Source of the DNA: Planctomycetota bacterium | GTDB taxonomy: Bacteria > Planctomycetota > B15-G4 > SIAN01 | NCBI GenBank assembly: GCA_031409275.1 | Contig: JANNXA010000022.1 | Span: 128,001 to 192,000, forward strand | Direction: 5' to 3' | Length of the DNA: 64,000 nucleotides | Shown here: one piece after another, positions 32,370 through 48,633 of the stretch | How positions within the stretch are numbered: position 1 is the stretch's first letter | How the letters are laid out: the number at the start of each line of letters is the position of its first letter | The notes under the pieces: model-generated | What the model was told of the DNA's origin: nothing | What the model saw: the letters and a program-made list of their open reading frames with translations, nothing else | Databases searched by the model: none | Program-made: the position numbers and the translations under genes

Positions 32370-33731
32370 ATGCAACTGGGACTGCGCGCAAAGTTCGGGC
32401 TCGGAATCGGTTTCCTCTCGCTGGCCGCGTGCGGCGCGAAGGTGAAAAGTCCGAGTCGTGTTCCTTACGTCGAAGTCTGGCCGCTCGCCCAGTTCGGCGA
32501 TCTCGAGCAGGACTACGGCGCCTCGCTTGCGCTGGCGGACAGCGACGCCGACGGTGACCGCGAGCTGATCGTTGGCGCCCCCGCCCGCGATCCGGCGATG
32601 GACGGGGTCGTGCTGTTCGTCTCGCTCGGAACGTTGACGGTCGTGAATGCGGTGCTGCCGTGGCGCCCGTCCGGCGACGACTCCGCTCATCACGACGAGT
32701 TCGGCCGGAGCCTGGTCTGGGGCGACTGGAATCGAGATACGCGCCTCGATCTGGCCGTCGGCGATCCTGGGGCCGACGTCGGCAACGTCGGGAACGCCGG
32801 CGAGGTGTGGGTCTTCTTCGGGCCGATCGACTCGGCGGTGGCGACGCGGATCTCGAGCAGCGTGCCCGCCAGCGGCGCCCGGTTCGGAGAGACGCTGGCC
32901 GCCGGCGACTACGACTTCGATGGTTACCAGGACCTCGCGATCGGCGCCCCGCATCCGGCCGATGTCGCGGTGGATGCCGATGGTCCCTCGCTCGAAGTGC
33001 TCTACGGTCCCGATTTCTCGCGCCGCGAACGCTGGGAAGCGGGCGGTGCCGGCGGTTCCTTCGGCGCGGCGTTGGTGAGCGTTCCGCAGCCGGGTGGCGG
33101 CGCGGCGCTGGTGGCCGGTGCGCCGGAGTTCGCGCACGCCGACGGAGCGCAGGGCGGCCTGTTCGCGTGGGAGCGCTTCGTCGACGCGTCCGCGCGTCGA
33201 GTCGGCTCGCCGCGCGCCGCCGACGCCGAGCTTGGCCGTGCGGGCAGCTACGGCGATTTCGATGGCGACGGGGACGGCGAACTCGCCGTCGCGGCATTGG
33301 CCGGCCGTGGCGCGGTCTACTTCTTCGAGCGCGACCAGTTCCGCGAACAGGGCCGCCTCACGCTGCCATCGGTCCTCACCGCACGCGCGGGTGCCCCGCT
33401 CTTCACGACGCCCGACCTCACCGGCGACCACGCCGAAGAACTGCTCCTGCTTTCCGCTCGCGCCGAGGACCCGGCGGCGCTGCTCTTCTCGCCCGGTCGC
33501 GGGCTCGCGCACCTCGCGCTCGATTTCGCGGCGGCTTCGGCGATCTCCGCCAACTTCGACTGGGACGACGCGCCCGAGCTCCTGCTCGCCACGCCCACCG
33601 GCTTGCGATCGGGTGGCGGTCTCTCGCAGCTCAGCCTCGTCGATGTCAGCTGGCAGGACGTGCATTCGCTCGCGTCGCCGAGGCCGGCTCCGATCGTGAT
33701 CCCCGGCATCGCCGCGCTGCGCGAGCGCTGA
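32370..33731 (+). CDS. FG-GAP (integrin alpha-like) repeat lipoprotein
   Basis: Lipobox LAAC; Ca-binding repeats DSDADGDRELIVGAP, DWNRDTRLDLAVGDP, DYDFDGYQDLAIGAP and DFDGDGDGELAV. Confidence 0.85.
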   Translation: MQLGLRAKFGLGIGFLSLAACGAKVKSPSRVPYVEVWPLAQFGDLEQDYGASLALADSDADGDRELIVGAPARDPAMDGVVLFVSLGTLTVVNAVLPWRPSGDDSAHHDEFGRSLVWGDWNRDTRLDLAVGDPGADVGNVGNAGEVWVFFGPIDSAVATRISSSVPASGARFGETLAAGDYDFDGYQDLAIGAPHPADVAVDADGPSLEVLYGPDFSRRERWEAGGAGGSFGAALVSVPQPGGGAALVAGAPEFAHADGAQGGLFAWERFVDASARRVGSPRAADAELGRAGSYGDFDGDGDGELAVAALAGRGAVYFFERDQFREQGRLTLPSVLTARAGAPLFTTPDLTGDHAEELLLLSARAEDPAALLFSPGRGLAHLALDFAAASAISANFDWDDAPELLLATPTGLRSGGGLSQLSLVDVSWQDVHSLASPRPAPIVIPGIAALRER

Positions 33732-33746
33732 GACGATCGGCGCGAG

Positions 33747-34567
33747 TCAGCGGTCGCGGCGCCGCAGCGCGCCGAGCACGCAGCAGACGACGAACAGGCC
33801 CGCGAGCGCCAGCACCACCGCGCCACCGGTCGGCACGGTGAACCAGGTCGAGAGGAGCAGCCCGAACACGCCGCCGAGCAGAGCGATGGCGATGCTCGCC
33901 GCGACGTGACCGCGCAACGTGGTCGCGATCTGGCGCCCGGCCGCCGCCGGGATCACCACCCACGCCTCGACCAGCAGCGCGCCGACCACTTTGAGGCTCG
34001 CCACGATGGTGGCCGTCAGCAGCAGCACGAAGAGGTAGTCGAGCCGCGTGCGCTGGCTTGCCGTGGTTGGCGCGACCGCAGGCGCGACACTGTCGAGGAG
34101 CAGGGCGTTGTAGTGGCGCGCCAGGAACGCGGCCGCGATGAGGAGCAGCGCGCCCAGCAGCGCGAGGTCGCCGTTCGTCACGGTGAGCAGGCTGCCGAAC
34201 ATCAGCGCTTCGATCTGGTGGACGTTGAAGCGTTGCGTCACCGCGACGAGCAGGCAGATCCCAAGCCCCAGCGTGAACGCGACGAAGACGCCGATCAGCG
34301 TGTCCGCCGGAAGCGCCGCGCGCCGCTTGAGCCACACCATTCCCAGCGCCGCCAGCAGGCAGAAGCCGAACATGCCGCCGTACGGCGCGGCGATCGGTTC
34401 CCCGAGCGCCAGCCCGATGGTGAGTCCGGTGAGCGCCGCCTGGCCGAGCGCGGTCGACAGGAAGGCGAGCCGCCGCGCGACCACGAGGTGCGACAGCGTG
34501 CCGAGCAGCGGCGCCAGCAGCAGCACGGCGGCGAGTCCGCGTTGCAGGAACGGGAAGTCGAGCCAGT

Positions 34568-34571
<4 letters not shown>
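33747..34571 (-). CDS. Metal ABC transporter permease (ABC-3, FpvE-like)
   Basis: Multi-TM; AALTG...LGEP...PYG..FGFC, DTLIGVF, LMFGSLLTV and SLKVVGALLVEA. Confidence 0.92.
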
Positions 34572-35196
<625 letters not shown>

Positions 35197-35200
<4 letters not shown>

Positions 35201-36144
35201 TGTTTCTGCGCCGCGGGCTTCAACGCGCGCACGATCGTCGCGGCGTTCTGAGCCATCTCCTGCTCGAACTTCTCATCGGTGTAGTCGCCCGTCGCGACGT
35301 GCGAGAGGAGGAACACGTCGGCCTGCGCCGACTGCCGCACCACGTCGAGCAACGCCGGCGGAAAGCTCTCCTCGCTGAAGAGGACGCGCAGCTGCCGGTC
35401 GCGCAGCTCGGTGATCGCGTGGCCGAGTTCGAGCGCCGACGGGACCAATCCGTGCGCGGGCTCGATCACGACGGCGACTTCGATCCCGAACTCCTGCAGC
35501 AGGTAGGCGTAGCCATCGTGAACGGTCGCGACGCGCGCCGCTTCGACGTCGGCGAGCTCGAGCGCTGCCGCCGCCTTGATCTTGCGCAGCTTGCGGGCGT
35601 ACTCGCCGGCGTTCTTGCGGAACAGCGGCGCGAGCTCGGGGCGCAGCTCGCTGAGCGCGTGCTCGATCGCGTAGGTCTGCTGGATGGCGTTCGTGAACGA
35701 GAGGAAGGTGTGGCTGTTGATCGCTTCGCCGTGTGCGCCGTGCAGGGTCGGCGTCGCGTCGCTGGGTCGGATGCGCAGCAACCGGCCATTGCCGGAGGCG
35801 ACGATCATCGGTTCGAGGAAGTCGTCATGGCCCAGTCCGTTCACGACCACGGCATCGAGGTCGGCGAGCTTCGCGATGCCGGCGGCGCGCGGCTGGTAGT
35901 TCCCGGCGTCGACGTCGCCTGGCAGCAGCGGGCGCACTTCGACGTCGCTGCCGGCGACCACGGCGCGCGTCCATGAGTAGTAGGGATGGAGCGTGACGCC
36001 GACCTTGAGCGGGGCTGCCGTGCGCGGCATCGGTTGAGCGGGCAGAGCGGACGCCGGAGGAGCCTGCGCTGCCGCCTCGGCGGTTGCCGCGATGAGCCAG
36101 CAGAGGAGGGTGGCGCAGACGTCGCGACGATCGAGGCGAATCAT
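35197..36144 (-). CDS. Metal ABC transporter substrate-binding protein (cluster A-I, FpvC-like)
   Basis: Signal peptide; GVTLHPYYS, NGLGHDDF, NSHTFLS, VHDGYAYLLQEFG, IEPAHG and LSHV. Confidence 0.92.
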
Positions 36145-36854
36145 GGAGAGCGCTCCGGCGGCGACGATTCGTTGGTTCGAGCCGATGGACCGATGAGGAC
36201 CTGCCGCAATCCGTGCAGCGCTGGATCGGCGAGGAATCCCTCCGGCAGCGCGCTGGCGCCATCGGTCGCGATCCAGAAAGAGACGTGAAGCAGCGTGCCG
36301 TCGCGCAGCCGCCGATGCTGCTCGTCGAGCGCGACGGGCACCCGCGGGTCGCGGCCCTCGAGCTCTCCTGGCTGCGGCTCGAGGATCTGCAACAGGAGCG
36401 CGCCAGCCGTCGCTCCCGCGGCGGGTCGTCCGATGTACTGCCAGGCGCCGGCGCGCTGCTCGCGGGCGAAAGTCGCGTCACGCTTCGCGGCAGCGCCCGC
36501 GAACGGCTCGATGCCATCGGCCGCGAGGGTCGCGACGTCGGGCCATGCGCCGACCTCGTCGCGCAGGCGCAGCAGTTCGAGGGCGGCCTCGTGCAGCTCA
36601 CGAACCGCGCGCTGCGCCGAGCCCGGCAGACCAGCGAAGAGGCGCTGCCAAGGCTGCTCGGTTGCGGCGTTGTCGGCGCCGCCGAGCGCTTGGTTGCCGC
36701 GGCCGATCCAGAGCAGCGCCACGACGGCAATCGCAACCGCGGCCCGCACCACCGCCGCCGTCTCGCCACGCCGGTCGGGCGGCGTCACGGTGACGAGTCG
36801 CGAGTCGTCGCCTTGCTGGCCGCGGTTGGCGTTCGTAGCGTCGTCCACAATCAT
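36141..36854 (-). CDS. Single-TM hypothetical protein (DUF6162 / FpvH-K-like)
   Basis: N-terminal VTPPDRRGE followed by one TM helix; WPDVATLAADGIEPF and YIG motifs. First gene of the metal ABC operon, with an ATGA overlap onto the SBP gene. Confidence 0.65.
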   Translation of the reverse strand: MIVDDATNANRGQQGDDSRLVTVTPPDRRGETAAVVRAAVAIAVVALLWIGRGNQALGGADNAATEQPWQRLFAGLPGSAQRAVRELHEAALELLRLRDEVGAWPDVATLAADGIEPFAGAAAKRDATFAREQRAGAWQYIGRPAAGATAGALLLQILEPQPGELEGRDPRVPVALDEQHRRLRDGTLLHVSFWIATDGASALPEGFLADPALHGLRQVLIGPSARTNESSPPERSP

Positions 36855-36929
36855 GCTCGAGCAACGAAAGTCGTGGCGGGATCGGATGGCGTGCGGCGCA
36901 GACGTTAGCTCCACGTCGAGGGGACGCGC

Positions 36930-37721
36930 GTGAGCGATCCGCTGCCCCCGCCGGCGCTCTCCGTGCGCGAGCTGCTCACGCTGAACGCGGCGGCGACGGC
37001 GACCCAGCTTCCGGCGCTGCTGCTGCTCACGCTGCTCTTCAGTGCGCCCAACGGCTGGCTCGACTGGCGCGATGCTGAACAGCTCGCGACGGGCGCCAAG
37101 GAGCACCTCTCGCCGTGGTGGCTCGGGCTCGCCGTCGCGCTCGCGACTGACACCGTACTGCAGGGCATGGCGAGCGGACTCGCGTTGCGCCGCCTGGCCG
37201 GGGCCCCCGCTTCGCTCGCCGAAGCGTTTTCTCTGCCGATCCGCCAGCTGCTGGCGCTCCTGGTCATCGCGCTGTCGCTGGCAGCGCTGGCGCTGGTGGC
37301 CGTCGGGTTGCCGGGCGCGCTCTACTCGGCGCAACCCAACCTCTCCACTCTGGTGGTCTTCGCCGCCGGCGCGATCGTCACGCTGATCGCGTCGTCGGGG
37401 TGGCTGCTGGCAGTGCCGCTGGTGATGGCGGAGCGGCTTGGCCCGCTCGCCGCCCTCGCACGCAGCTGGCAGCTCACCAACGGGGTGCGACGCAAGTGCT
37501 TCGTGCTGCGCGCGCTGCAGGGCGTCGCCGTCATCGCCGCCGCGCAGTCGGGGGTCGCGCTGGGGGAAGCTTCGGCGGAAGGCGGCGGCGTGCTGTTCGC
37601 ATTCGCGCTGCGCGTCTTCGCGACCGCGCTCCTGATCCTGTTGCCGACGGTGACCTACGTGCGGCTGCTCGCGGTGCGCGGTGAAGCGCTGCCCGAGAAA
37701 CTCGAGGAGCTGTTCCGATGA
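36930..37721 (+). CDS. Multi-pass membrane protein (similar to the GDPD membrane-domain class)
   Basis: About six hydrophobic helices and the AVPLVMAERLGPLAALARSWQLT motif. Its stop overlaps the next ATG. Confidence 0.7.
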   Translation: MSDPLPPPALSVRELLTLNAAATATQLPALLLLTLLFSAPNGWLDWRDAEQLATGAKEHLSPWWLGLAVALATDTVLQGMASGLALRRLAGAPASLAEAFSLPIRQLLALLVIALSLAALALVAVGLPGALYSAQPNLSTLVVFAAGAIVTLIASSGWLLAVPLVMAERLGPLAALARSWQLTNGVRRKCFVLRALQGVAVIAAAQSGVALGEASAEGGGVLFAFALRVFATALLILLPTVTYVRLLAVRGEALPEKLEELFR

Positions 37722-38539
37722 GCGAGGCGGCACGCCGAGATGGCTCGCGCTACCACGTCAGCGACGAGGAGAAGGCGCGATTCGCGGCCGACGGCTGGGT
37801 CCATCTGAAAGGGGTCCTGTCGGTCGAGGAGCTGGCGGCAGTCGCCATCGACTACGAGCGCTTCCTGCGTCGCGAGATCGCGGTCGCCGGCAAGGACTTC
37901 TGCGACATGTCCGGCGACTACGACAAGCCGGTCGAGTCGTTTGCGATCGTGAACGTGATGCTGCCACGCCGCTACCACCCCGCCTGGCAGGGCAGCCTGT
38001 ACGAACAGCGCGCCCACTCCATCGCCGAGCAGCTGCAAGGGCCGGGGATGGCGCTCGACTACGACCAACTCCTGGCCAAGCGTCCGCAGCGACCGGACGC
38101 GGTCTTCGCCTGGCATCAAGACCTCGCCTACTGGCCGACCGATACGCCGGATACGCGCACCGCCACCTGCTGGCTCGCGCTCGATGACTCGACGCCCGAG
38201 AACGGCTGCATGCGCTTCGTTTCGGGGACGCAGGCGGCGCCGCTGCGCCCCCACCGGCCGCTGCATGGCGACCGCTCGAAGTCGCACACGCTGGTGACCG
38301 ACCTCGTGAAGGGCGATCGAGTGACGCTGGCCCGCCTCGCGCGCGGTGACATCACCGTTCACGACGAGCGGGTGCTGCACGGGTCGGGCGGCAACGCGAG
38401 CAGCGGATGGCGTCGCGCCTACATCGTCGCCTTTCGCAGCGCCGCCACCGTCGCCGAGGAGCGCCGCCGCGGCTTCACCCACTCGCACAACGACGAGGCC
38501 AACGTGCTCGATCGCGTCGGGTTCGCGCAGGGGCGCTGA
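37718..38539 (+). CDS. Phytanoyl-CoA dioxygenase (PhyH) family Fe/2-oxoglutarate oxygenase
   Basis: GAGGAG RBS; WHQD (HxD), [25 protein letters not shown] and RRA. Confidence 0.92.
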
Positions 38540-38569
38540 GCCAGCGGCGGCAGCGCGCCAGCCGTTGTC

Positions 38570-39325
38570 TCACGCGCGGCTGCGTGCCCCGATGGCGACG
38601 GCGATCGCGACAACGACCAGCACCAGCGCGAAGCTGCGCTGCAACGCCGAGGCGGCCATTCGCGGTGCGACGACCACGCCGAACGCGCTGCCGACGCTCC
38701 CGACCGCTGCGACGAGGCCGACCAGCGCGAGGTCGATCGTGACGCCACCGCGAGCGTGGTGGGCGGCGAAGGCCACGCTCGAGTTGATCGCGATCACCAC
38801 CAGGCTCGTCGCTGCCGCGCGCGCGATCGGAAGGCCGCCGAACAGCAACATCGCCGGCACCAGCAGGAAGCCGCCGCCGACCCCGAGGAACCCGGTCAAC
38901 ACCCCCACTCCAACGGCGGCGCTGACGGCCTTGGCCGGCTGCCAGGCGGTTGGATCGCCCGGGACTTTCGGGGCGACGGCACGACGCCACAGGGCCACCG
39001 CCGCGCTGGCAACCAGCGCCGAGAAGGCGAGTTCCGTCGCGCGCTCCGGCACCGCGGCGTGGAGGCGCGCGCCGATCGGAGCGCCGAGCGCGCCGACTGC
39101 CGCGAAGAGGAACGCGATGCGGAGGTCGACGAGTCTCCGGCGCGCTTGCATCAAGGCGCCGACCGCGCTGATCAGCGCGACGATCACCAGCGATTCGACC
39201 GTTGCCTGATGTGGCGTTCGGTGGAGCAGCAGCGTCAGCAACGGAACCGTGAGGATCGAGCCGCCCGACCCGAACAGGCCGAGGCTGACTCCGACGACGG
39301 CGGCGCCGATCCAGGCGGCGATCAT
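38570..39325 (-). CDS. Sulfite exporter TauE/SafE (TSUP) family
   Basis: Duplicated motif [13 protein letters not shown] / [13 protein letters not shown]; about eight TM helices; ATGA overlap with the upstream gene. Confidence 0.93.
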
Positions 39326-40623
39326 CGCCGCGGAGCCGCGCAGCCTCCGGCCGAGCAGCCCCCACCCTCCGCGGTCGCGGACATCGGCGCGGCGCTCGAG
39401 CGATTCCATGGCATGCGCGCCAACAGCAGCCCCATCCCGCACCAGTCGGTGATTCCGGCGAAGAGGAGGCCACCGCCGACGAACGCGGCGAGACCGACGA
39501 ATGCCGGATGGAGCAGCAGCGCCAACACGGAGGAGAGCAGGACGAGGCTGCCGGCGACGATTCGCACCTGCCGTTCGAGCGAGAGGCGCGCCCGCCCCTT
39601 CACGGTGTCAACGCCCGCGGCGCGCAGCGCTTCGAGCCCTCCTTCGACGACCGTCGTTCCGCCGACGCCGAGCGCCAAGAGCCGCTCCTGCGCCTGCGCT
39701 GCGCGAGCGCCGGTTCGGCAGAGCAGCAGGCGTGGCGCTGCCACTTTGCGGATCTCGTCGATTCGCCCTTCGAGTTGATCGAGCGCTACCAGGCGCGATC
39801 CGTCGACATGCTCCGTCTCGAATTCGGCTCCGCTGCGCACATCGATCACGCTGTGGGCGCTGCCGTTGGCGATGCGTGCCACGAGTTCGGCTGCCGGAAG
39901 CGAGGCGGCGATGGGCGCGCCGTCGCGATTCAGCGCCAGCAGCAGCTCCATGTTCGCGGGACGCGGCGGCCCCGGCCCCGCCAGCGCCTTCGCGAAGGCG
40001 TCGCGGTCGGCGTGGGCCAGCCAAGGATTGTCGCGCCTCTGTCCACCCAGGGTGCTCTCGATCCGGCCGTGGTAGTCGTGGCCGGGAAACAGGCGGGTGG
40101 TGTCGGGCAGTTCGCGCAGCAACCGCTGCAACGTGTCGAACAGGACGCGTGCGTCGCCCCCGAGGAAGTCGGCGCGCGCGATGGTGTCGATCAGCAACGT
40201 GTCGCCGGCGAAGAGCGCGTCGCCAATCACCAGCACGAGATGATCTTGCGTATGACCGGGCGCGTGGAGCACCCGCACGCGCTGCTCACCCAGCGGCAGT
40301 TCCTCACCGTCGGCCGGCATGCGCGTCACTCCGCGATGAGCCGCCAGCGGATGGGCAACGCGGGTCGCTTGCAGTCGGATCGCGAGGGAGGCCGATCCGG
40401 AGGGGTGATCGGCGTGGGTGTGGGTGTCGACGACGAAATCGACCGTGAGCTGGTCGCGGTTCACTCGATCGACGATCGCATCGACGAGATCGAGATGCGG
40501 GTCGACCACGAGCGCGCGTCGGGAAGGCGCGTCCGCGACGAGCCAGCTGCGGCACCCTTGCGGGTGGAGGAACGGGACGACGACGAGGTGGCTCGCGGAA
40601 CGGGTGGGCGCATCGAGTTTCAT
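39322..40623 (-). CDS. Persulfide dioxygenase (ETHE1/Blh-like MBL) - rhodanese - DUF2892 fusion
   Basis: AGGAG RBS; DTHTHADH, PGHT, GDTL, ARADF and PGHDY; rhodanese IDVR...CRTGAR; C-terminal LERQVRIVAG...AGITDWCGMGLLLARMPWN. Confidence 0.92.
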   Translation of the reverse strand: MKLDAPTRSASHLVVVPFLHPQGCRSWLVADAPSRRALVVDPHLDLVDAIVDRVNRDQLTVDFVVDTHTHADHPSGSASLAIRLQATRVAHPLAAHRGVTRMPADGEELPLGEQRVRVLHAPGHTQDHLVLVIGDALFAGDTLLIDTIARADFLGGDARVLFDTLQRLLRELPDTTRLFPGHDYHGRIESTLGGQRRDNPWLAHADRDAFAKALAGPGPPRPANMELLLALNRDGAPIAASLPAAELVARIANGSAHSVIDVRSGAEFETEHVDGSRLVALDQLEGRIDEIRKVAAPRLLLCRTGARAAQAQERLLALGVGGTTVVEGGLEALRAAGVDTVKGRARLSLERQVRIVAGSLVLLSSVLALLLHPAFVGLAAFVGGGLLFAGITDWCGMGLLLARMPWNRSSAAPMSATAEGGGCSAGGCAAPRR

Positions 40624-40706
40624 GACGGGCTCCTGCGGGTGGACGAGTCGCTCTTCCGGCAGGAGAGAGGCACGTTCCACGCCAGCGTTCCCGCGGAGGA
40701 GCGCGA

Positions 40707-40730
40707 CGCCACCCGCACGCGCGGGCGGCG
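40707..40730 (-). terminator. GC-rich stem-loop just after the ECF sigma stop codon (possible terminator or RNA stabiliser)
   Basis: Minus strand CGCCGCCCGC-GCGT-GCGGGTGGCG forms a 10-bp stem with one G-U pair. There is no U-tract, so termination is uncertain. Confidence 0.35.
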
Positions 40731-40735
40731 CGCCG

Positions 40736-41551
40736 CTAGGAGGTGGACGCTCCTTCACGCAGTTCGCGTGCGAGCCAGTCGCGCAGCGGCTGGGGGAGTT
40801 TTCCTTCGCCAAGCTCGCGGCACAGCTCCTGCCCCCAGTCGAGCGAGGCGAAGACCGTCGCGCACCGCTCGCAGACGAGCCCACGCGGGAACTCGAAGGC
40901 GACCCCGCGATCGAGTGCCTCCTGCTTGGCGCGCAGCAAGTCGAGGCAGAGCTGGCGCTCGTATCGCGGCGGTGCCACCGCCTCCCGTGGCAGCACCGCC
41001 TCGAGTGCCGCGCGCAGCCGCAATCGGGCGCGATGGACGCGCGTGCGGACCGTGGCGGGCTCGATCCCGAGCAGCGCCGCCACCTCGCTCACCTCGAGTC
41101 CGACGATCTCGCGCAGCACCAACGGCAGCCGGAAATCGAGCGGCAACTCCGCGATGGCCGCCTCGAGTTGCTGCTTCGCTTCGCGGCGGACGGCCGCGGC
41201 GACCGGAGTCGAGTCGTCGGGAACCGTTCCGAGCAGCGGTGCCGCGAACAGCGCCTCCGGATCGAGCGGCGCGAGTTCCGTCGGAGCCCCGGCGCGCGGG
41301 CGGTGCATGCGCTGGCAGGCGCGAGCGGCGATCGACCAGAGCCACGTCGCCGGCGATGAGCGCCCTTCGAAGCGATCCCACGCGCGCCACGCCTGCAGGA
41401 AGGTCTCCTGCACCAGCTCACGCGCCTGCTCGTCATCGCCGCAGAAGCGCCGACCGAGTGCGTAGAGGCGGCTGCCCTGCTCGTCGACCAGTCGCGGCAG
41501 CGCTTGCGCGCGCGGGTCGCCTGCGCGAACGGGTGGCGACGTCTCGCTCAA
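40736..41551 (-). CDS. ECF sigma-70 factor with a Cys-rich C-terminal extension
   Basis: TTG start overlaps the upstream stop. Region 2 ELVQETFLQAW...FEGRSSPATWLWSIA; region 4 LPLDFRLPLVLRE...EVAALLGI...TVRTRVHRAR; tail contains C...CERC...C. Confidence 0.9.
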   Translation of the reverse strand: MSETSPPVRAGDPRAQALPRLVDEQGSRLYALGRRFCGDDEQARELVQETFLQAWRAWDRFEGRSSPATWLWSIAARACQRMHRPRAGAPTELAPLDPEALFAAPLLGTVPDDSTPVAAAVRREAKQQLEAAIAELPLDFRLPLVLREIVGLEVSEVAALLGIEPATVRTRVHRARLRLRAALEAVLPREAVAPPRYERQLCLDLLRAKQEALDRGVAFEFPRGLVCERCATVFASLDWGQELCRELGEGKLPQPLRDWLARELREGASTS

Positions 41552-43164
41552 GAGCCGAGGTGATCGATGCGCAGCACGGCGAAGCGCGTCGCGTCGTCCG
41601 CGCTCGCGCCAAGCAGCCCCCACGTGGCGAGCCCATCGTCGGAGCGCGCGTCGAGCAGCAGCAGCGCCAGTCGCGCGAGCCGCTGCTTCGAGGGCACGAA
41701 GAGCGTCCCCGCGGGCAGCTCGCCCTGCCACGCTCCGTCGCTGCCGCCCCACTCGATGAGTCGATGACCCTGGAATGGCCGTTCCGATTCGCGGCGATCC
41801 CGGATCACCATGGCGGTTCCGCGGGCCGGAGCCGCCGCCGCGAAGCGCTCGACCACGAGGCCGTGGCGGCGCAGCAGCTCTTCGAGCTCCGCGCTCGCAC
41901 CCGGAATCGCGAAACCGGCGAGAGGCAGCGCGAGCGGCTCCAACCCCCCGAAGCTCACCTGCGCCGGAAGCACCACTTCACGCACGACACCGGTGTCGAT
42001 GACCCGTTCGAGTCCCGTCACGGCGTCGGGCTCGCTGCGGCACTCACCGACCAGCACGCGGTCGTTCGCGCGCGTCACGGTCAGCTTGCCGCGTCGGGGC
42101 ACGGCCGCGCCGCCCGCCCGCTCGATCCCGTCGGCGTCGGCGTCACGGCGAAGCTGCGCGATGGTGTCGGCACGCGCTGCGGAAAAGCGCAGCGCCGCCC
42201 GCACGAAGGCGCCAGTCACCTGCACGCGCCGCTCGAAGGTCTCGTGGCTGTAGGCCTCCGAAAGGAGCGTGAGGCGGTTGCAGAGGCCGAAGTAGTTGAT
42301 GCCGTAGCGCCCGCGGTGGTCGAAGGTCGCCCAGCCGAGTTCGGGCTGCTTGGAATCGACGAAGTCGCCGTAGTCGTAGGTGGCGAATCCGGCGCCCGCC
42401 ATCGTCGCGCGCAAGGCCGGCAACAGCGTTCCTTGCGCGAACGCCAGCATCTTCGGTTCGGTCGCCGGATGGAGCGGCGGGGCATAGGTGAGGTCGTAGC
42501 CGTGGAAGCTGCCATCGGTCGTGTGCAGATCCATCACCAGCGCGGCGTCGAGCGCGTTCACCGCAGCGATCAGCCCGCGCGTCTCGGGCGCTTCGAGCTT
42601 GATGAAGTCGCGGTTCAGGTCGAGCTGCTGTCCGTTGGCGCGTTGACCGACGCCTTCGACCGGCCCGTTCTGGTCGGGGCGATTCTTGCGATCGATGGCG
42701 TCGTTGCCGTCGGGGTTGTAGTTCGGCACGAACGCGATCACCAGGCGCGTCAGGAGCTCGGTGTGCTGGCCCGCCGCGAACTCGCGCAGGAGCTCCTGCA
42801 CCGCCTCTTTGCCCTCGACCTCGCCCGCGTGGATGTTGGCGCAGACCAGCACGGCGAGCTTGCCGCTCGCGCGCGCGATGGCCAACGTCGGGCAGGGCGG
42901 CTCGGCCACGAGCACCAGCGGCACCGCGCGCCCTTGCGTCGATGTCGCGATCTCGAGGCGCACGAGGCGTGGCGAGGCGGCGACGCAGGTCGCCACGAAC
43001 CGCTCGACCTCCTCGCTCGTCGAGGTGCGCGTGAAGCCGGACGCCTCGGCCACGGTGCGTGGTAGTGCGGGTGGCGGTCCCGGCGACGCGTCCTGCTGCG
43101 ATGCGCGCGCGAGCGACGCGGACAGGAGGAGAGCGAGCGGGGCCAGCAGCCGGCGCGGGCTCAT
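41548..43164 (-). CDS. M14 family zinc carboxypeptidase, secreted
   Basis: Signal peptide; NIHAGEVEG (HxxE), YNPDGN, DLNRD, DLHTTDG and LSEAYS. Confidence 0.92.
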   Translation of the reverse strand: MSPRRLLAPLALLLSASLARASQQDASPGPPPALPRTVAEASGFTRTSTSEEVERFVATCVAASPRLVRLEIATSTQGRAVPLVLVAEPPCPTLAIARASGKLAVLVCANIHAGEVEGKEAVQELLREFAAGQHTELLTRLVIAFVPNYNPDGNDAIDRKNRPDQNGPVEGVGQRANGQQLDLNRDFIKLEAPETRGLIAAVNALDAALVMDLHTTDGSFHGYDLTYAPPLHPATEPKMLAFAQGTLLPALRATMAGAGFATYDYGDFVDSKQPELGWATFDHRGRYGINYFGLCNRLTLLSEAYSHETFERRVQVTGAFVRAALRFSAARADTIAQLRRDADADGIERAGGAAVPRRGKLTVTRANDRVLVGECRSEPDAVTGLERVIDTGVVREVVLPAQVSFGGLEPLALPLAGFAIPGASAELEELLRRHGLVVERFAAAAPARGTAMVIRDRRESERPFQGHRLIEWGGSDGAWQGELPAGTLFVPSKQRLARLALLLLDARSDDGLATWGLLGASADDATRFAVLRIDHLGS

Positions 43165-44015
43165 GCGCGGCTCGCGAAGAGCAGCGTGCGCAGGCCGTTG
43201 CGTTCCTGGCGGACGTGGTCGATCTCGATGCGGGGGAACCCGGCCAAGGTGAGCGCCTCCTTCAGTCCATCGAGCGGGAGCCAGCGCGCGAAGTCGAGCG
43301 TTCCGGCGAAGGGGTTGTCGGGCTGGTCCTCGCGGAAGCGTCGGAACGCGAAGCGGCGTCCCCCCGCCTCGTAGCTCTCGGTGGCCTGCTCAGGCGCGGC
43401 GATCGAGGTGTCGAGCATCATTCCATCGCGCACCAGCTCACCGAGCGCCAGCAGATGGGCGACCGGATCACGCAGGTGGTAGAGCACTCCGACGTGATGG
43501 GCGACGTCGACCTGCAACTCTGGCGGCGGCGTCGCGCGGCTCTCGACGTCCCATGGGAAGACGGTCGGGTGGACGCCGAAGAAGGCGCAGCGCACGATCG
43601 TCTTCACCACGTTCTCGACGCGCGCATCGATGGCGGTGACGGCTTTCGCGCGCTGGCACAAGGCGATGGTGTGAATCCCCTCGAAGCAACCGATCTCGAG
43701 CACTCGCTTGTCGGCGAGGTGGAAGCGCGCGTCGAACTGCACGATGCGCGGATCGGGAATCGGCTGCGGCGACTCGCGTTTGCCCTCTTTCGCCGGGCAG
43801 CCGAAGCGGCGTCCGTGGCCATCCGCGGTGAAGCAGTTCCAATCGAGCAGCGTGTTCAGCCGGTCGAGTTCGCCGTCGGAGAGGCGATCGACGAGCGGCG
43901 CGGCCACGCGCCCCTCGGTGAAGCCGCTGCGCGGGAAGCTGGCGCGAAACCTCGCCTTGGCGGCCGCGCGCGCGGCGCTGCGGTCGAATCGTTCGAGCAA
44001 CCAGCGGGCAAGCAT
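43161..44015 (-). CDS. Class I SAM-dependent methyltransferase
   Basis: GGAGG RBS; VLEIGCFEG (motif I), AIDAR and GVLYHLRDP. Confidence 0.9.
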   Translation of the reverse strand: MLARWLLERFDRSAARAAAKARFRASFPRSGFTEGRVAAPLVDRLSDGELDRLNTLLDWNCFTADGHGRRFGCPAKEGKRESPQPIPDPRIVQFDARFHLADKRVLEIGCFEGIHTIALCQRAKAVTAIDARVENVVKTIVRCAFFGVHPTVFPWDVESRATPPPELQVDVAHHVGVLYHLRDPVAHLLALGELVRDGMMLDTSIAAPEQATESYEAGGRRFAFRRFREDQPDNPFAGTLDFARWLPLDGLKEALTLAGFPRIEIDHVRQERNGLRTLLFASRA

Positions 44016-44029
44016 CGAGGGCCTCCGGA

Positions 44030-45223
44030 TCAGCGGCGTCGCAGCGCCTCGGTCGGCGCCAGGCGCGCCGCGCGCCAGGCCGGCACGGCGCCGCCGAGCA
44101 GCCCGAGCGCGAGTGCGAAGGTGATGGCACCGCCAAGCACCGGCAGCGTGACGCGGAAGGCAAACGCGACTTCGGTGAAGGTCGCGAAGTTGGTGGTGCC
44201 GGTCTCGATGCCGTTGATCGGAAGCGCCAGCAGGCACCCGACCGCTCCGCCGATCAGGCCGAGCACCAGCGCCTCGAACAGGAAGGAGAGGAAGATCGGG
44301 AAGGGCCGGAAACCCAGCGACAGGAGGATTCCGATCTCGTGCGTTCGGCTGGCCACCGCCGACAGCATGGTGTTGGTGGCGGTGAAGGTGGCGGCGAGCC
44401 CCATGATCACCGACAGCCCGATGCTGAGCGCGAGCAGCGTGGTCGCGAGCGCGCCGGTCATCGACTCGAGGTACGCGCGCTCGGTGAAGACCTTCACCTT
44501 CAGGTCCTGGTAGGTCGACCCGTCGGCGAGCATCGCGGCGAATGCGTCGTATTCGTCGCCGACGATCTCGGGATTGAGCTTCGCCACCACGCGATTGGCC
44601 ACCGGTCGCTGCAGCGCGACGAGCATGCGCTCGAAGTCGCCCCAGATCTCCGACTCGAAGGGGCCGTCGCATTCGAAGATGCCGACCACGCGAAACGGCG
44701 TCGTGTTGAGCTGGACCACGTCGCCGAGCCGGCAGTTCTCGATGCGATCGACGAGCTTGCGCCCCACCACGACCTCGTCGGCGCCGAACTGCAGCGCGCG
44801 CCCCTCGGTGAAACGGAACGAGTCCCCGCGAATCGCGAGGCTCGCCGCCTGCACTCCGCGGATCGGGACGTTGGTCTCGCCGCTGCCGTCCGCCTTGTTG
44901 CGTCGGACGGCGAGGTAGCACTCCATCGCCGCGAGTGGCGCGCCTTCCGGGCCGCCCGACTTCGCGATCTGCGGAAGGGTCTTGATCAGCCGATCACACG
45001 TTTCGCGCGTGATCCCGCTTTCGCCTTCGCTGGTCGCCCCCTGGCGCAGGAAGACGGCGACATCGTCACGGCCGTTCTGGACGAACAGCGAAGTGAAGCC
45101 GGCTCGCAACGCCAGCACTCCGGCCAGCACGGCGACCGTCGCCCCGATGCCAAGCACGGTCAGCAGGGTCGCGCTGCGGCGGACGAAGAGGCTGCGCAGG
45201 GTGTAGGAGAGTGGTACGAGCAT
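44030..45223 (-). CDS. ABC exporter permease (MacB/FtsX family)
   Basis: N-terminal TM, a periplasmic domain, NTM...RTHEIGILLSLGF and three C-terminal TM helices. Confidence 0.92.
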   Translation of the reverse strand: MLVPLSYTLRSLFVRRSATLLTVLGIGATVAVLAGVLALRAGFTSLFVQNGRDDVAVFLRQGATSEGESGITRETCDRLIKTLPQIAKSGGPEGAPLAAMECYLAVRRNKADGSGETNVPIRGVQAASLAIRGDSFRFTEGRALQFGADEVVVGRKLVDRIENCRLGDVVQLNTTPFRVVGIFECDGPFESEIWGDFERMLVALQRPVANRVVAKLNPEIVGDEYDAFAAMLADGSTYQDLKVKVFTERAYLESMTGALATTLLALSIGLSVIMGLAATFTATNTMLSAVASRTHEIGILLSLGFRPFPIFLSFLFEALVLGLIGGAVGCLLALPINGIETGTTNFATFTEVAFAFRVTLPVLGGAITFALALGLLGGAVPAWRAARLAPTEALRRR

Positions 45224-45226
45224 CGG

Positions 45227-46393
45227 TCACTCCACCGATCGCAGCGCTTCGACCACGCGAAGCGCGCGTGCGCGAAGCGCCGGCATGACGCCGGCGACGA
45301 GGCCGATGGCGAGCGTGAGCCCGGTGGCCAGCAGCAGCGTCTCCGACGTCACCTCGTAGCCGGGGAACATGCTGCCGAGCGCGGCGCGCAGTCCCGGCTC
45401 GCTCAACTTCGCCAGCGCGATGCCGCCGAAGCCGCCGATCCCGCAGAGCAGCAGCGACTGGGTCAGCATCATCCCGGCGACGCTGCCGTCGGTGAAACCG
45501 ACCGCCTTCAGGATGCCGGCGTCGTGCAACTGTTCGCGGAAGGCCATCAGCATCGTGTTGATGCAGGCGAGCACGATCGCGATCAGGACGCCCCCGCCGA
45601 TCGCCGAGACGAAGAAGGGTACGTTGCCGACCATCGAGACGAACTGCGCCTGGAACTCCGCCTCGGTGCTGCAACTGACGCGCTGCGGCCCGTTCTCGAA
45701 CAGCTGCTCGACCGATGCCGCGATCGCGACCTGGTCGGCATCGGGGGCGGTGCGCAGGAAGTAGGTGCCGGTGCCGGGCGCTTCGCCGAACGACGCCTTC
45801 ACCGTCTCTTCGAAGTAGTTCCAGTGGAAGAACATCGTGTTGCCGTCGACGGCGCTCGAGGTGGGCTCGTAGATCGCCCGGACGGTGAACTCCCACGCGC
45901 CGCCGTCGGGGGCCGGGAAGATCGTCGCCAGCAACGGCACTGTCTGGCCGACCTTCCAGTCGAACTGCTTCGCGAGCGAGCGGCCGACCAGGCAGCCGCG
46001 TCGATCGGCGGCGACGTCGGCCCAACTGCCCTCGACCAGCGACACTTCCGGATACAGGTCGTTGAGCTGGTCCATGTCGACGGCGAACTGCGCGAAGAAG
46101 GCGTCCTCGTCGCCGTAGCGGCCGCCGAACCACTGCCATTTGCAGAGGGTCTGGACCCCTTCGACAGCGGCGATCTTCGCCTGGTAGCTCTGCGGCAGGT
46201 CGACGAAGAGGCTCACGGCGGATTGCACGACGAGGCGATCGCGCTTGGCACCGCGCACGCCGGCGTCGAGCGCGACGACCAGCGAGCGCAGCATGCAGAG
46301 CAGGAACAGCGCCACCACCAGCGAAGCGATGGTGAGACCCGAGCGAACCTTGTGCTTGCCGAGGTAACGGCGAACCAGGCGGAAGGAACTCAT
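45227..46393 (-). CDS. ABC exporter permease (MacB/FtsX family)
   Basis: RSGLTIAS, WFGG, NTMLMAFRE...GILKAVGF and GLVAGVMPA. Confidence 0.92.
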   Translation of the reverse strand: MSSFRLVRRYLGKHKVRSGLTIASLVVALFLLCMLRSLVVALDAGVRGAKRDRLVVQSAVSLFVDLPQSYQAKIAAVEGVQTLCKWQWFGGRYGDEDAFFAQFAVDMDQLNDLYPEVSLVEGSWADVAADRRGCLVGRSLAKQFDWKVGQTVPLLATIFPAPDGGAWEFTVRAIYEPTSSAVDGNTMFFHWNYFEETVKASFGEAPGTGTYFLRTAPDADQVAIAASVEQLFENGPQRVSCSTEAEFQAQFVSMVGNVPFFVSAIGGGVLIAIVLACINTMLMAFREQLHDAGILKAVGFTDGSVAGMMLTQSLLLCGIGGFGGIALAKLSEPGLRAALGSMFPGYEVTSETLLLATGLTLAIGLVAGVMPALRARALRVVEALRSVE

Positions 46394-46397
46394 GCGC

Positions 46398-47108
46398 TCA
46401 GGCCCGACCGGCGACGACGGGGTTGGTCTCGATCCGGCCGAGCTGCCCCTTGTCGAGGTGGACGATCATGCTGGCGCGCGCCGCTGCGAACGGGTCGTGC
46501 GTCACCATCAGGATGGTCTTCTTGAACTCCTGGTTCAGGCGCACCAGAAGGTCGAGCACGTCGCCGGCCGACTTGCGGTCGAGATCGCCGGTGGGCTCAT
46601 CGGCGAGGATCACTTTCGGGTCGCTGGCGATCGCGCGCGCGATGGCGACGCGCTGCTCCTGACCACCCGAGAGTTGTTGCGGACGATGCTCTTCGCGGCC
46701 CTCGAGCCCGACCAGTTTCAGCGCGAAGCGCGCGTGGTCGCGCCGCTCCTTCTTGGAGAGGGGCGTCAGCGTGAGCGGCAGTTCGACGTTCTCCTGCGCG
46801 GTCAGCACCGGGATCAGGTTGAAGCCCTGGAAGACGAAGCCGACGTTGGCCGCGCGCCACCGCGCGAGTTCGCCGGAGGAGAGCTCGGAGAGGTTCGAGC
46901 CTGCCACGACGAGCTGTCCGTCGTCGGCCTGGTCGAGCCCGCCAATCAAGTTGAGCAGCGTCGTCTTGCCCGAACCCGACGGCCCCATCAGCGCATAGAA
47001 GCGCCCCTCGTCCATCGTCAGGTCGAGTCCGTCGAGCACGGTCAGCGTCTCGCCGCCGCGCTGGTAGCGCTTGAAGACTCCGCGCGCCGAGATCATCGGA
47101 TTGCTCAT
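46398..47108 (-). CDS. ABC transporter ATP-binding protein (LolD/MacB-like)
   Basis: GPSGSGKTT, GFVFQ, LSGGQEQRVAIARA, ADEPTGDLD, VTHD. Confidence 0.95.
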   Translation of the reverse strand: MSNPMISARGVFKRYQRGGETLTVLDGLDLTMDEGRFYALMGPSGSGKTTLLNLIGGLDQADDGQLVVAGSNLSELSSGELARWRAANVGFVFQGFNLIPVLTAQENVELPLTLTPLSKKERRDHARFALKLVGLEGREEHRPQQLSGGQEQRVAIARAIASDPKVILADEPTGDLDRKSAGDVLDLLVRLNQEFKKTILMVTHDPFAAARASMIVHLDKGQLGRIETNPVVAGRA

Positions 47109-48541
47109 GGCTGCTCCTTCGACTTCGCTTGCACCCGATCCCCGTCGGCGAGGTCCGCCGGCGGGTCGACCACCACGCGATCACGCGCGGCAAGTCCCTT
47201 GGTCACCAGTACGCGCCCGCCGCTCGGTTCCCCCGCGGCGACTTCCGTTCGCTGCACTCGATCGCCGCGCACGACCCACACCACGAGCGCCGCGCCGTCG
47301 CGCTGCAGCGCTCGTTCCGGGACCAGCACGCCGACGATCGGTACGGCGCCTCCCGCGGCCGGGGCCGGCGCATCCTTCGTTCGAAACACGACGCGTGCCC
47401 CCATCTCGGGGCGCAGCTTCGCGTCGGGCGCGGCGAATCGCACGCGCACTTCGATCGTCGCCTTGCTTCGACTCGCGGTCGGCCAGATCCGGGTGACCTC
47501 GCCGTCGTATCCCTGCTCCGGCCACGCATCGAGGAAGATGCTGGCTGGCGCGCCGACCGTGACGGCGTTGATGGTCCGCTCCGGCATCTCGACCTGCACT
47601 TCGAGCGACGCGAAGTCGACCATGGTCGCCACCGAGCCGCGGCTGTTGGCTCCCTGCGAGTTGGGTGAGACGACCTCGCCGACTTCGGCGTCCTTCAGCA
47701 CGACCACGCCGTCGAAAGGGGCGCGCACTTCGGTCTTGTCGTAGGTTGCCTGCGCCTGGTCGCGCTGCGCGGAGGCGACCGCCACCCGCGTGAGCACCTC
47801 GGCCGCGAGCGACTCCTGCACGGCGACTTGCCGCTCTCCCTGCACGATCGCCGATTGCGCGGCGGCGAGCTGAGCGACGGCGGCACGCTCCGCGGCGGCG
47901 GCCCGCGCCGCCTCGGCGCGCGCATCATCGAGCCACTGCTGGCTCTCGATGTCGTCGGCCACCATCTTCTCGGCGCGAGCGAGCCGTTGTGCCGCCTGCG
48001 CGCTCGTGGCGCGCGCCTCATCTTGCTGCGCGGCGGTGGCGTCGCGAATGCGCTCGAGGCGCTCGATGTCGCTGCGAGCGGCGGCCAACTCCTGCTCGGC
48101 GCGGGTGACGGACGCCTTCGCGCTCGCAAGCTCGGCGGTGGCATGGGCGAGCGACGCGCGGTACTCGTCCGAGTAGAGACGGGCGACCACGAAGCCCTTC
48201 TTGACGACCATTCCTTCGGTCACGTTCATCTCGACGATGCGGCCCGGCGCATCGGCGGAGAGCGCGGCGCGTTTGCTGGCGACGACGTAGCCGTTGGCCG
48301 AGGTCCCGGCGACGGCGCTCGCGGCGAGCGGCGTCGGGGCGAGGGCCACGGCGATCTCGACTTCCGGCAGGCGCACGCGATCGACCCACTGGCGCAACCG
48401 CGGCCAGAACAACGCGATCCCGCCGACGAGCAGCAGCAGCCCGACGATCCTGGCGCCGGAGCCGCCGCGACGCGGTGGTCGGCCGGTTCCTGCTGCGCCC
48501 GCGTCCTGCTTTCGCTCGATCCGCAACGGACTGAGATCCAC
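47105..48541 (-). CDS. Efflux periplasmic adaptor subunit (MacA/HlyD family)
   Basis: One N-terminal TM, ANGYVVA, a long coiled coil and VRAPFDGVV. The GTG start at 48541 is inferred. Confidence 0.9.
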   Translation of the reverse strand: MDLSPLRIERKQDAGAAGTGRPPRRGGSGARIVGLLLLVGGIALFWPRLRQWVDRVRLPEVEIAVALAPTPLAASAVAGTSANGYVVASKRAALSADAPGRIVEMNVTEGMVVKKGFVVARLYSDEYRASLAHATAELASAKASVTRAEQELAAARSDIERLERIRDATAAQQDEARATSAQAAQRLARAEKMVADDIESQQWLDDARAEAARAAAAERAAVAQLAAAQSAIVQGERQVAVQESLAAEVLTRVAVASAQRDQAQATYDKTEVRAPFDGVVVLKDAEVGEVVSPNSQGANSRGSVATMVDFASLEVQVEMPERTINAVTVGAPASIFLDAWPEQGYDGEVTRIWPTASRSKATIEVRVRFAAPDAKLRPEMGARVVFRTKDAPAPAAGGAVPIVGVLVPERALQRDGAALVVWVVRGDRVQRTEVAAGEPSGGRVLVTKGLAARDRVVVDPPADLADGDRVQAKSKEQP

Positions 48542-48633
48542 GACGCAAAACCCTCCGCCCAAGACGAGCGGCGCACGTTAGCAGCCGGCTCAAGAAGTCG
48601 ACTCGCGCGGGCCGCGTCGCGAACCGCTGCCGC

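Follow-up and report, generated by a model that had tools for sequence, protein, structure and literature searches.

In the 64,000-nucleotide stretch of planctomycete DNA analysed here (the window), a gene for an ECF sigma factor with a cysteine-bearing C-terminal tail precedes genes for a persulfide dioxygenase (PDO) fusion and a TauE exporter, which raises the question of whether the sigma factor itself switches these genes on and reads reactive sulfur through its tail. The gene order given in the original prediction holds, with all genes on the minus strand: the sigma factor (271 aa, TTG start, 40736..41551) lies directly upstream of a PDO–rhodanese–YgaP membrane domain fusion (433 aa, 39322..40623), to which a TauE/SafE sulfite-exporter family protein (251 aa, 38570..39325) is ATGA-coupled. 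The TTG start of the sigma gene shares bases, in a TTGA overlap, with the stop codon of an upstream M14 carboxypeptidase gene (41548..43164, minus strand), a context gene that is kept as neighbour only in the closest relative. Neither a sigma70-type promoter nor a terminator was found within 38300–41700, and a search against plasmid sequences gave no match at an E-value of 1e-20.

Proteins encoded at the locus

The fusion protein carries the Pfam domains Lactamase_B, Rhodanese and YgaP-like_TM, the last of which we take to be the domain formerly named DUF2892. The motifs THTHADH, PGHT, GDTL and PGHDY are found in its metallo-beta-lactamase (MBL) fold, and C302 of the rhodanese domain lies within CRTGAR. 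Its best solved relatives are the MBL-fold chains 4ysb and 9rhq, BpPRF, ETHE1 and YgaP, the E-values for BpPRF (4e-33) and ETHE1 (2e-23) comparing with about 1e-13 or weaker for glyoxalase II. With HxHxDH, PGHT, GD and PGHDY present and PDOs as the nearest solved chains, the MBL-domain protein is assigned, from its sequence, to the ETHE1/PRF-type persulfide dioxygenases.

The sigma factor classifies as an ECF (group 4) member predicted to contain sigma2 and sigma4 only: Pfam Sigma70_r2 (residues 22–84) and r4_2 (residues 127–179) both score over cut-off, sigma3 is absent, and TIGR02937 gives 80 bits against a cut-off of 42.9. No Pfam domain covers any part of the tail of about 85 aa, in which residues 199–271 (40739..40957, minus strand) are predicted to form three helices and hold C202, C227xxC230 and C244, which fall within the motifs spelled out in the original prediction; the gene and the four cysteines of the extension, put earlier at about 80 aa, are thereby confirmed. 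Two more conserved cysteines, C37 and C79, which the original prediction does not name, lie in sigma2. The claim that a separate anti-sigma gene is missing also stands: the sole HxxxCxxC in the six frames of 33001–48500 is on the strand opposite the PDO gene, in one of its shadow frames.

Conservation and ancestry of the cysteine tail

Each tail cysteine is kept in 120/120 homologs, these being the best 120 of 287 tail matches and hence a set chosen by the tail, with a median tail length of about 84 aa. Among 49 homologs chosen instead by the core, the four cysteines are kept in 47, 47, 49 and 45 members, respectively, and all four in 42, one or more being missing in the other 7, which are divergent. 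The likeness to a fused zinc anti-sigma (ZAS) domain without its His, proposed earlier, is borne out by hhalign, which aligns the tail with that of ZAS-fused ECFs at 95.8% (E 8e-9, 42 columns, residues 225–266; reversed control, 0.4%). Sister-clade ZAS-fused ECFs match zf-HC2 in 15 of 16 cases, whereas the query sigma gave no zf-HC2 match in the Pfam search; the HxxxCxxC motif is present in just 1/120 homologs, excluding a canonical ZAS, and at position 223, the place of the canonical His, D, E, Q and S predominate. The correspondence of the first tail helix, containing C202, to the class I anti-sigma domain was drawn by eye only. Sister relatives exist both as fused and as two-gene versions, and behind the tail-less sister sigmas lies a free-standing anti-sigma with the same last Cys. 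These results support derivation of the tail from a zinc anti-sigma (zf-HC2/ZAS) domain that has lost its His together with the helix carrying it.

An ESM Atlas search with the tail returned a single match, to a zf-HC2 anti-sigma cluster (score 0.80), which we regard as a lead only, and fold searches, whose results were dominated by the core, gave no structural match for the tail itself. The model of the full-length sigma factor (pLDDT 91.9, pTM 0.83) best matches SigW in its complex with RsiW (Z 14.1, 2.8 Å over 150 residues), compared with 27.7 Å for polymerase-bound SigH. The sigma2/sigma4 arrangement is predicted to be closed, like that of SigW bound to RsiW, though the model is only suggestive and may reflect training bias.

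A promoter-like motif that follows the sigma factor

The sigma family occurs in 26/401 genomes of the phylum and in 4/301 of a second phylum, a distribution that makes its architecture more than a chance arrangement. Relatives were collected with alignment-based searches, an initial single-protein scan of the genome collection having given 1 true relative among 6 loci, and a metagenome scan kept 80 loci, comprising 9 of the family and other-ECF controls. Core sulfur genes (PDO, rhodanese, TauE, YeeE/YedE, DUF442 and YgaP) adjoin 22/36 family loci, or 28/36 when RND/DUF302 genes are counted too, against 5/76 other-ECF loci, in line with the expected association of tail homologs with sulfur genes; the cargo queries for these counts were drawn from those same family loci. 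Several loci come from one genus or family and are not independent. The remaining 8 loci are without cargo, 6 of them spanning under 6 kb. Thioredoxin, OsmC and CMD genes also occur among the neighbours, RND efflux genes adjoin 7/36 loci, no conserved partner gene was found among the neighbours, and the context upstream of the sigma gene varies. In the second phylum the cargo is YeeE–YedE–PDO–SulP at one locus (L300) and a TtrB/NrfC–DsrP-like fusion at another (L303), and uncharacterised proteins with OsmC but no sulfur genes at 2/4. Two-gene sister pairs adjoin sulfur genes in just 2/17 loci. Linkage of the family to sulfur genes, as read from these gene neighbourhoods, is supported.

Within the intergenic segment 40624–40735, pointed out earlier as a candidate regulatory region, there is a conserved motif of the ECF promoter type whose occurrence goes with that of the sigma factor. 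The predicted promoter (40667..40692, minus strand) consists of a -35 element GGGAAC (40692–40687), a 12-nt spacer and the -10 region CGTGCCTC (40674–40667), 68 nt upstream of the PDO start, and conforms to the consensus GGGAAC-N12/13-CGTGYCTC seen ahead of unrelated cargo genes. With a matrix trained without the window site and without locus L001, this site ranks top in its own 5.6-Mb genome (22.4; runner-up, 17.5). A score of at least 14 is reached by 24/28 cargo loci, the own locus and close kin being excluded from training, and two sites each are present at L014, L119, L122 and L126. Two of the 25 training sites (L121 and L129) proved to be wrong picks and are left out of the 24/28 count; the matrix that still includes them was used for the genome ranking and for the scores of sigma-less genomes, distant genes, autoregulation, other-ECF loci, the second phylum and random windows. 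None of 3000 random 250-nt windows reaches 14, and in genomes without the sigma factor the motif was found before 0/24 PDO and 0/9 DUF442 genes. In the second phylum, which lies outside the training set, it stands directly behind the sigma gene in 4/4 loci. The bipartite motif thus follows the sigma factor, not the cargo family, and does so with five or more unrelated types of cargo and in both phyla. None of the refuting outcomes named with the original prediction appeared where sequence comparison could address them. Given the adjacency and the single promoter-like motif conserved in the two phyla, the sigma factor likely activates sulfur-detoxification genes, and that it drives the predicted PDO-fusion/TauE promoter is, on these comparisons, highly probable.

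The reach of this control appears to be local. A pattern search of 27 sigma-bearing genomes gave 60 matches (31 with the reversed pattern), 15 of which are the adjacent sites. Of the 45 non-adjacent matches, 29 were inspected; the majority of these fall within genes and a single one lies ahead of a sulfur gene. A large regulon was rejected. In sigma-bearing genomes the motif precedes 0/10 distant PDO genes, 0/6 distant YeeE/YedE genes reach 14, and it is missing before 7/9 distant DUF442 genes, including the copy in the window's genome (1.6), the two exceptions being those of G004 (23.2) and G082 (16.5). Since the motif is missing before most distant sulfur genes, the sigma factor is not a master regulator of such genes. 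Autoregulation, assessed from the motif, is rare (1/36 family loci). As to other sulfur regulators, a CsoR/CstR search of the window's own genome yielded a single weak match to the CsoR family, at which the open frames are unlike a small repressor. An ArsR search yielded six HTH_5 matches, all outside the window, with no SqrR-like candidate among the five inspected.

Predicted mechanism, alternatives and relation to known sensors

We propose that the sigma factor is produced without autoregulation and would be controlled after translation, the fused, His-less anti-sigma remnant being predicted to keep it closed. C202, C227, C230 and C244, possibly together with C37 and C79, would form a Cys4 Zn site or a dithiol pair, and persulfidation or polysulfide bridging of the tail cysteines would release the tail. 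The opened sigma factor would then direct transcription of the PDO–rhodanese–YgaP and TauE genes; PDO would convert persulfide to sulfite, the rhodanese domain would shift sulfane sulfur, TauE would export the product, and the signal would drop. We consider it probable that the tail is a sensing and inhibitory module, and reactive sulfur (persulfide or polysulfide), which the tail may sense directly, is by a small margin the favoured physiological signal; the mostly local regulon and the OsmC-type cargo at 2/4 second-phylum loci speak against it. As far as the published accounts available to us extend, the targets regulated by known persulfide sensors match the cargo set (PMC13467558, PMC12423496, PMC7315123), and PerR offers a precedent for persulfidation of a Cys4 zinc site (PMC9952342).

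The same one-protein switch and promoter could instead respond to general thiol-redox stress (disulfide or peroxide), the tail acting like RsrA, for which redox release is given in the accessible ECF12 description, and the sulfur genes forming part of a thiol-stress response. The ZAS ancestry of the tail, the thioredoxin, OsmC and CMD cargo, which fits general thiol stress equally, the OsmC-type cargo without sulfur genes at two of the four second-phylum loci and, according to the same source, the Mycobacterium tuberculosis ECF12 member SigH, whose targets during oxidative stress likewise include genes of sulfur metabolism, lend this some weight; however, several unrelated sulfane-sulfur types (PDO, rhodanese-YgaP, TauE, YeeE/YedE and DUF442) dominate the cargo and the regulon is small and local, unlike a broad thiol regulon, and we consider the redox reading unlikely, if a serious competitor. 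That the tail instead has a structural role, is needed for activity or marks the protein for proteolysis, the signal being read by another protein or through sigma expression, seems improbable given its anti-sigma descent, the closed predicted model, the varying upstream context and the lack of a conserved partner gene, in spite of the coupling of the window sigma to an unrelated upstream operon, the 7/49 divergent members lacking tail cysteines and the extensions of ECF41 and ECF42, which in the descriptions at hand are partly or wholly required for activity.

A sensor of Cu, Zn or Cd in control of efflux genes, with sulfur genes induced as a metal-stress buffer, would have its model in CorE and CorE2 (ECF238, formerly ECF44), which in the accessible literature are anti-sigma-free ECFs switched by metal through a Cys-rich tail (PMC8999054), and would account for the RND genes beside 7/36 loci. 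Like these and OrbS, the present protein would be a one-component ECF with a Cys-bearing C-terminal sensor; CorE and CorE2, however, have a tail of about 20 aa with CxC, a metal signal and metal-homeostasis targets, in contrast to the ZAS-derived tail of about 84 aa and sulfur cargo found here. A CorE-like assignment was rejected on this tail length and on CxC in 1/120 homologs. Two RND permeases tested score higher with multidrug models than with CusA/CzcA, all below cut-off, and P-type ATPase and multicopper oxidase genes are absent among 102 neighbours scanned, leaving the metal reading quite improbable. Finally, the sigma factor might be a bystander on a shared mobile island, with a different ECF reading the motif: GGAAC-type -35 elements are common, ECF29 and ECF268 also have GGGAAC in their available descriptions, 13/76 other-ECF loci reach a score of 14, so that another ECF could read it, and the sigma factor is patchy even within the genus (2/5 genomes). 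Against the tracking of the sigma factor by the motif across cargo types and phyla, and the same cargo without the motif in sigma-less genomes, this is extremely improbable.

The proposed sensing of reactive sulfur by a fused sigma factor may be compared with other systems. The class I ZAS pairs RsiW–SigW, RsrA–SigR and ChrR–SigE share homology of zf-HC2-bearing tails and, for SigW, the bound conformation matched by the model, whereas here a single chain without the His, its helix or a zf-HC2 match carries an extra Cys 14 residues past the CxxC and rarely shows autoregulation. In the classification entries available, ECF48, ECF52 and ECF53 likewise have an anti-sigma-like zinc domain fused behind sigma4 and no separate anti-sigma, but belong to actinobacteria and are for the most part long and anchored in the membrane (ECF48s2 being short and soluble), without a described sulfur context; the uncharacterised ECF287 and ECF288 share an extension of about 80–100 aa with conserved Cys and an absent anti-sigma, but are confined to Actinobacteria or Firmicutes, ECF287 having a TCG -35 and a MerR/TetR/hydrolase context. 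As described, ECF287 and ECF48 differ from the present family in taxonomy, promoter and context, and the ECF288 motif CGxxGxGxCxC occurs in 0/120 homologs. ECF29, described there with an extension of about 30 aa, RCE/D and a -10 of CATCCAAT, was also rejected; RC[ED] occurs in 7/120 homologs, the GGGAAC -35 is shared and the -10 differs. CstR, SqrR/BigR and FisR, as far as their accessible descriptions go, would share with it Cys-based sensing and the same kinds of targets (PDO, sulfurtransferases, TauE, YeeE/YedE and RND), but are CsoR or ArsR repressors or a sigma54 activator, in contrast to a sigma factor without a CsoR, ArsR or Fis fold. The available part of a 2026 review of persulfide-sensing regulators includes no sigma factor, the portion of the ECF classification supplement at hand does not mention rhodanese, TauE or sulfite exporter, and the open-access literature searched, to which a more extensive survey of planctomycete ECFs noted in PMC7826278 does not belong, ties no ECF sigma to rhodanese, persulfide or sulfane sulfur.

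Because the sigma factor, predicted promoter and targets are defined to the base, a single gene together with a fragment of 112 nt would be enough to test the proposal in a laboratory host; if true, it would supply a small genetic part for sulfide/polysulfide biosensors. It would also show how a two-gene sigma/anti-sigma system becomes a one-component sensor, since the split form, the canonical fusion and the His-less fusion were all found. We consider the chances evenly balanced that this fused ECF/ZAS protein without His, with a sulfane-sulfur-selective Cys4 or six-Cys site, represents a fourth class of primary persulfide sensor, and the first to be a sigma factor, serving as a portable regulator of adjoining sulfur genes across Planctomycetota, Gemmatimonadota and further phyla with few cultured members; if so, a sigma factor would form a new class beside the CsoR-, ArsR- and Fis-family sensors of reactive sulfur.

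The sigma factor gene, its neighbours and its relatives

The three genes named in the original prediction were all found on the minus strand as described: an ECF sigma factor of 271 aa (41551-40736), a 433-aa persulfide dioxygenase (PDO)-rhodanese-YgaP fusion (40623-39322), which counts BpPRF, ETHE1 and YgaP among its closest solved relatives, and TauE (39325-38570), ATGA-coupled to the fusion gene. The sigma factor gene starts with a TTG that shares bases with the stop codon of the M14 peptidase gene before it, the last gene of a run (41548-48562) that also includes a MacA-like adaptor, an ABC ATPase, two permeases and a methyltransferase. Only the closest relative, L001, has part of this run as well. 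There, PAS and MCP genes are inserted after TauE (L001:9231-11101), both absent from the window. The window's genome also contains a second MBL-rhodanese fusion (L170; G000:C7 66250-67260), which lacks the promoter motif described below.

Pfam matches sigma2 and sigma4, leaving a tail of about 85 aa unmatched. Among the best 120 of 287 matches to this tail, C202, C227, C230 and C244 are each present in 120/120, and the sigma2 cysteines C37 and C79 in 109/109 and 109/110, respectively, where the residue is present. Since this set was selected by the tail, the cysteines were counted again in a profile search of 50%-cluster representatives, which gave 149 proteins, 69 of them assigned by core score and 49 of these having a full homologous tail; C202 was found in 47/49, C227 in 47/49, C230 in 49/49, C244 in 45/49 and all four together in 42/49, so that the predicted conservation of the tail cysteines is borne out in both sets. 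A core-only FastTree places the query and 28 core-selected members in one clade (support 0.951), a partly circular result, since the core score had served to select the members. The close homologs that are named belong to Planctomycetota, with others in KSB1 and Acidobacteriota; the family occurs in 26/401 genomes of the window's phylum, 2/5 of its genus and 4/301 of a second phylum (that of genome G420, whose locus L002 is labelled Gemmatimonadota). One member, P0129 (745 aa), has about 470 aa more beyond the tail, through either a fusion or read-through.

Sulfur genes and a common promoter motif

Genes for PDO, rhodanese-YgaP, TauE, YeeE/YedE, DUF442-type sulfurtransferase or YgaP (tblastn; Pfam names) adjoin the sigma factor in 22 of 36 family loci (window, L001, L010-L018 and L116-L140, which also supplied the queries), compared with 5 of 76 other-ECF loci, in agreement with the sulfur linkage expected of the homologs. 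RND/DUF302 genes occur in 7/36, bringing loci with either cargo type to 28/36; six of the eight loci with neither are under 6 kb. Two of the five sulfur-linked controls are sister sigmas, L031 and L032, which follow genes for PDO-rhodanese, TauE and a TsdA-like cytochrome; they are the only 2 of 17 sister loci (L019-L035) with sulfur genes nearby, a count that weighs against the sulfur reading. L031 has its own separate zf-HC2 anti-sigma, and L032 is cut at the contig end before that position; after the tail-less ECF and its anti-sigma (L031:1537-5096) come an aquaporin and an ArsC-like gene. Because the cargo varies between lineages, the gene neighbourhoods argue for a linkage that reflects function rather than inheritance, although several of the family loci are kin. 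Excerpts of PMC13467558, PMC12423496 and PMC7315123 name targets of persulfide-sensing regulators that match the cargo list.

The sequence before the cargo genes carries a predicted ECF-type promoter, GGGAAC-N12/13-CGTGYCTC, located in the window at 40692-40667 before the PDO fusion; when the window and L001 were excluded from the training of the matrix, this site was the genome's best (22.4; next 17.5; 15 sites reach 14). When each locus and its close kin were left out of training, at least 14 was reached before cargo in 24 of the 28 cargo loci, the others being L120 (13.0) and L121, L129 and L130, with weaker variants. The training set at no point included L016, L018 or the second sites of L014, L119 and L126. 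None of 3000 random 250-nt windows reached 14, and in sigma-less genomes the motif was found before 0/24 strong PDO matches (from 30 loci taken from 50 genomes with a PDO match) and 0/9 DUF442 genes. In the second phylum, it lies directly 3' of the sigma gene in 4/4 loci (18.0, 17.1, 12.3 and 12.9), followed by YeeE-YedE-PDO-SulP in L300, by a TtrB/NrfC-DsrP-like fusion (under NCBIfam cut-offs) in L303, and by unknown proteins and OsmC in L301 and L302. Encoded in the last two (L301:8106-9903, L302:7985-10826) are exported proteins rich in Gln and Met that have no Pfam match, together with an unknown protein, OsmC and a haem-binding protein. The query sigma very probably controls the cargo promoter. 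Only 1/36 family loci has the motif upstream of the sigma gene itself, which fits control of sigma activity after translation.

Other results argue against a wide or exclusive regulon. In sigma-bearing genomes, the motif precedes 0/10 distant PDO genes, 0/6 distant YeeE/YedE genes reach 14, and 2/9 distant DUF442 genes (in genomes G004 and G082) have it, the window genome's own being without it. The latter gene (G000:C24:46931-47413, L250; compared with L233/L249) encodes a DUF442-type lipoprotein 88% identical to the G004 copy, which has a strong site and then a methyltransferase; the site-less ortholog is followed by a different gene, gamma-glutamyltransferase-like by eye. A genome-wide pattern search gave no clear excess beyond adjacent sites (45 versus 31 for the reversed pattern), and at least 14 was reached in 13/76 other-ECF loci because GGAAC elements are common. 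A DUF2202 gene of a sigma-bearing genome (L232:1663-2553), with an intergenic site 61 nt upstream, is a possible distant target.

Origin and predicted structure of the tail

In the lower-ranking profile matches, a canonical zinc finger is fused to the ECF (zf-HC2 matched in 15/16); like the family, these proteins have the two sigma2 cysteines and a further Cys, 14 residues beyond CxxC. Residues 225-266 of the query align with the tails of these proteins in hhalign (95.8%, E 8e-9), against 0.4% for a reversed control; the first helix of the query tail, with C202, is matched by eye only. The AlphaFold tails are one helix apart: a fused sister has four helices and a short turn, with the His ending the second helix, whereas in the query that second helix is replaced by a loop, leaving three. 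Tail-less sisters with a zf-HC2 anti-sigma gene directly 3' were also found. The tail homology, the helix comparison and the existence of fused and separate zf-HC2 sisters support the earlier reading of the tail as a zinc anti-sigma (ZAS) without its His. The fused clade with two extra Cys (A3; P0208, P0216, P0218 and others, L030:5941-6780) matches no described ECF group in the excerpts of literature compared; at L019-L029 and L033-L035, ECF and separate ZAS pairs have conserved surroundings unrelated to sulfur, and their anti-sigmas retain the extra last Cys.

In the query model (pLDDT 91.9, pTM 0.83), sigma2 and sigma4 take up the positions that they have in the SigW-RsiW complex (Z 14.1, 2.8 Å, 150 residues), unlike those in polymerase-bound SigH (27.7 Å), a predicted closed arrangement that suggests self-inhibition by the tail.

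Predicted mechanism and its alternatives

It is most likely that the tail would clamp the sigma factor shut via a Cys-ligated site. Sulfane sulfur would modify the tail cysteines, as has a precedent in the Cys4 zinc site of PerR (excerpt of PMC9952342), and the modified tail would release the sigma factor, which would then transcribe the adjacent clearance genes. We modestly favor this persulfide-sensing mechanism as a whole. A general thiol-redox signal instead of persulfide would fit the OsmC, thioredoxin and CMD cargo, and we regard it as rather unlikely. It is improbable that the signal is read elsewhere than in the tail, still more so that it is a metal, and scarcely credible that the sigma factor is a bystander.

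ECFs with regulatory Cys tails (CorE, CorE2; excerpt of PMC8999054), zinc-finger fusions (ECF48, 52 and 53) and the Cys-rich, uncharacterised ECF287 and 288 (excerpts of PMC7826278 and PMC7671368) are already on record. Motif tests for CorE, ECF29, ECF288 and, for the tail, canonical ZAS were all negative. The family architecture is a variation on known ECF designs. A search with most subscription journals outside its reach found no literature tying an ECF to persulfide, sulfane sulfur or rhodanese; if true, a role as reactive-sulfur regulator would be new for an ECF sigma factor.
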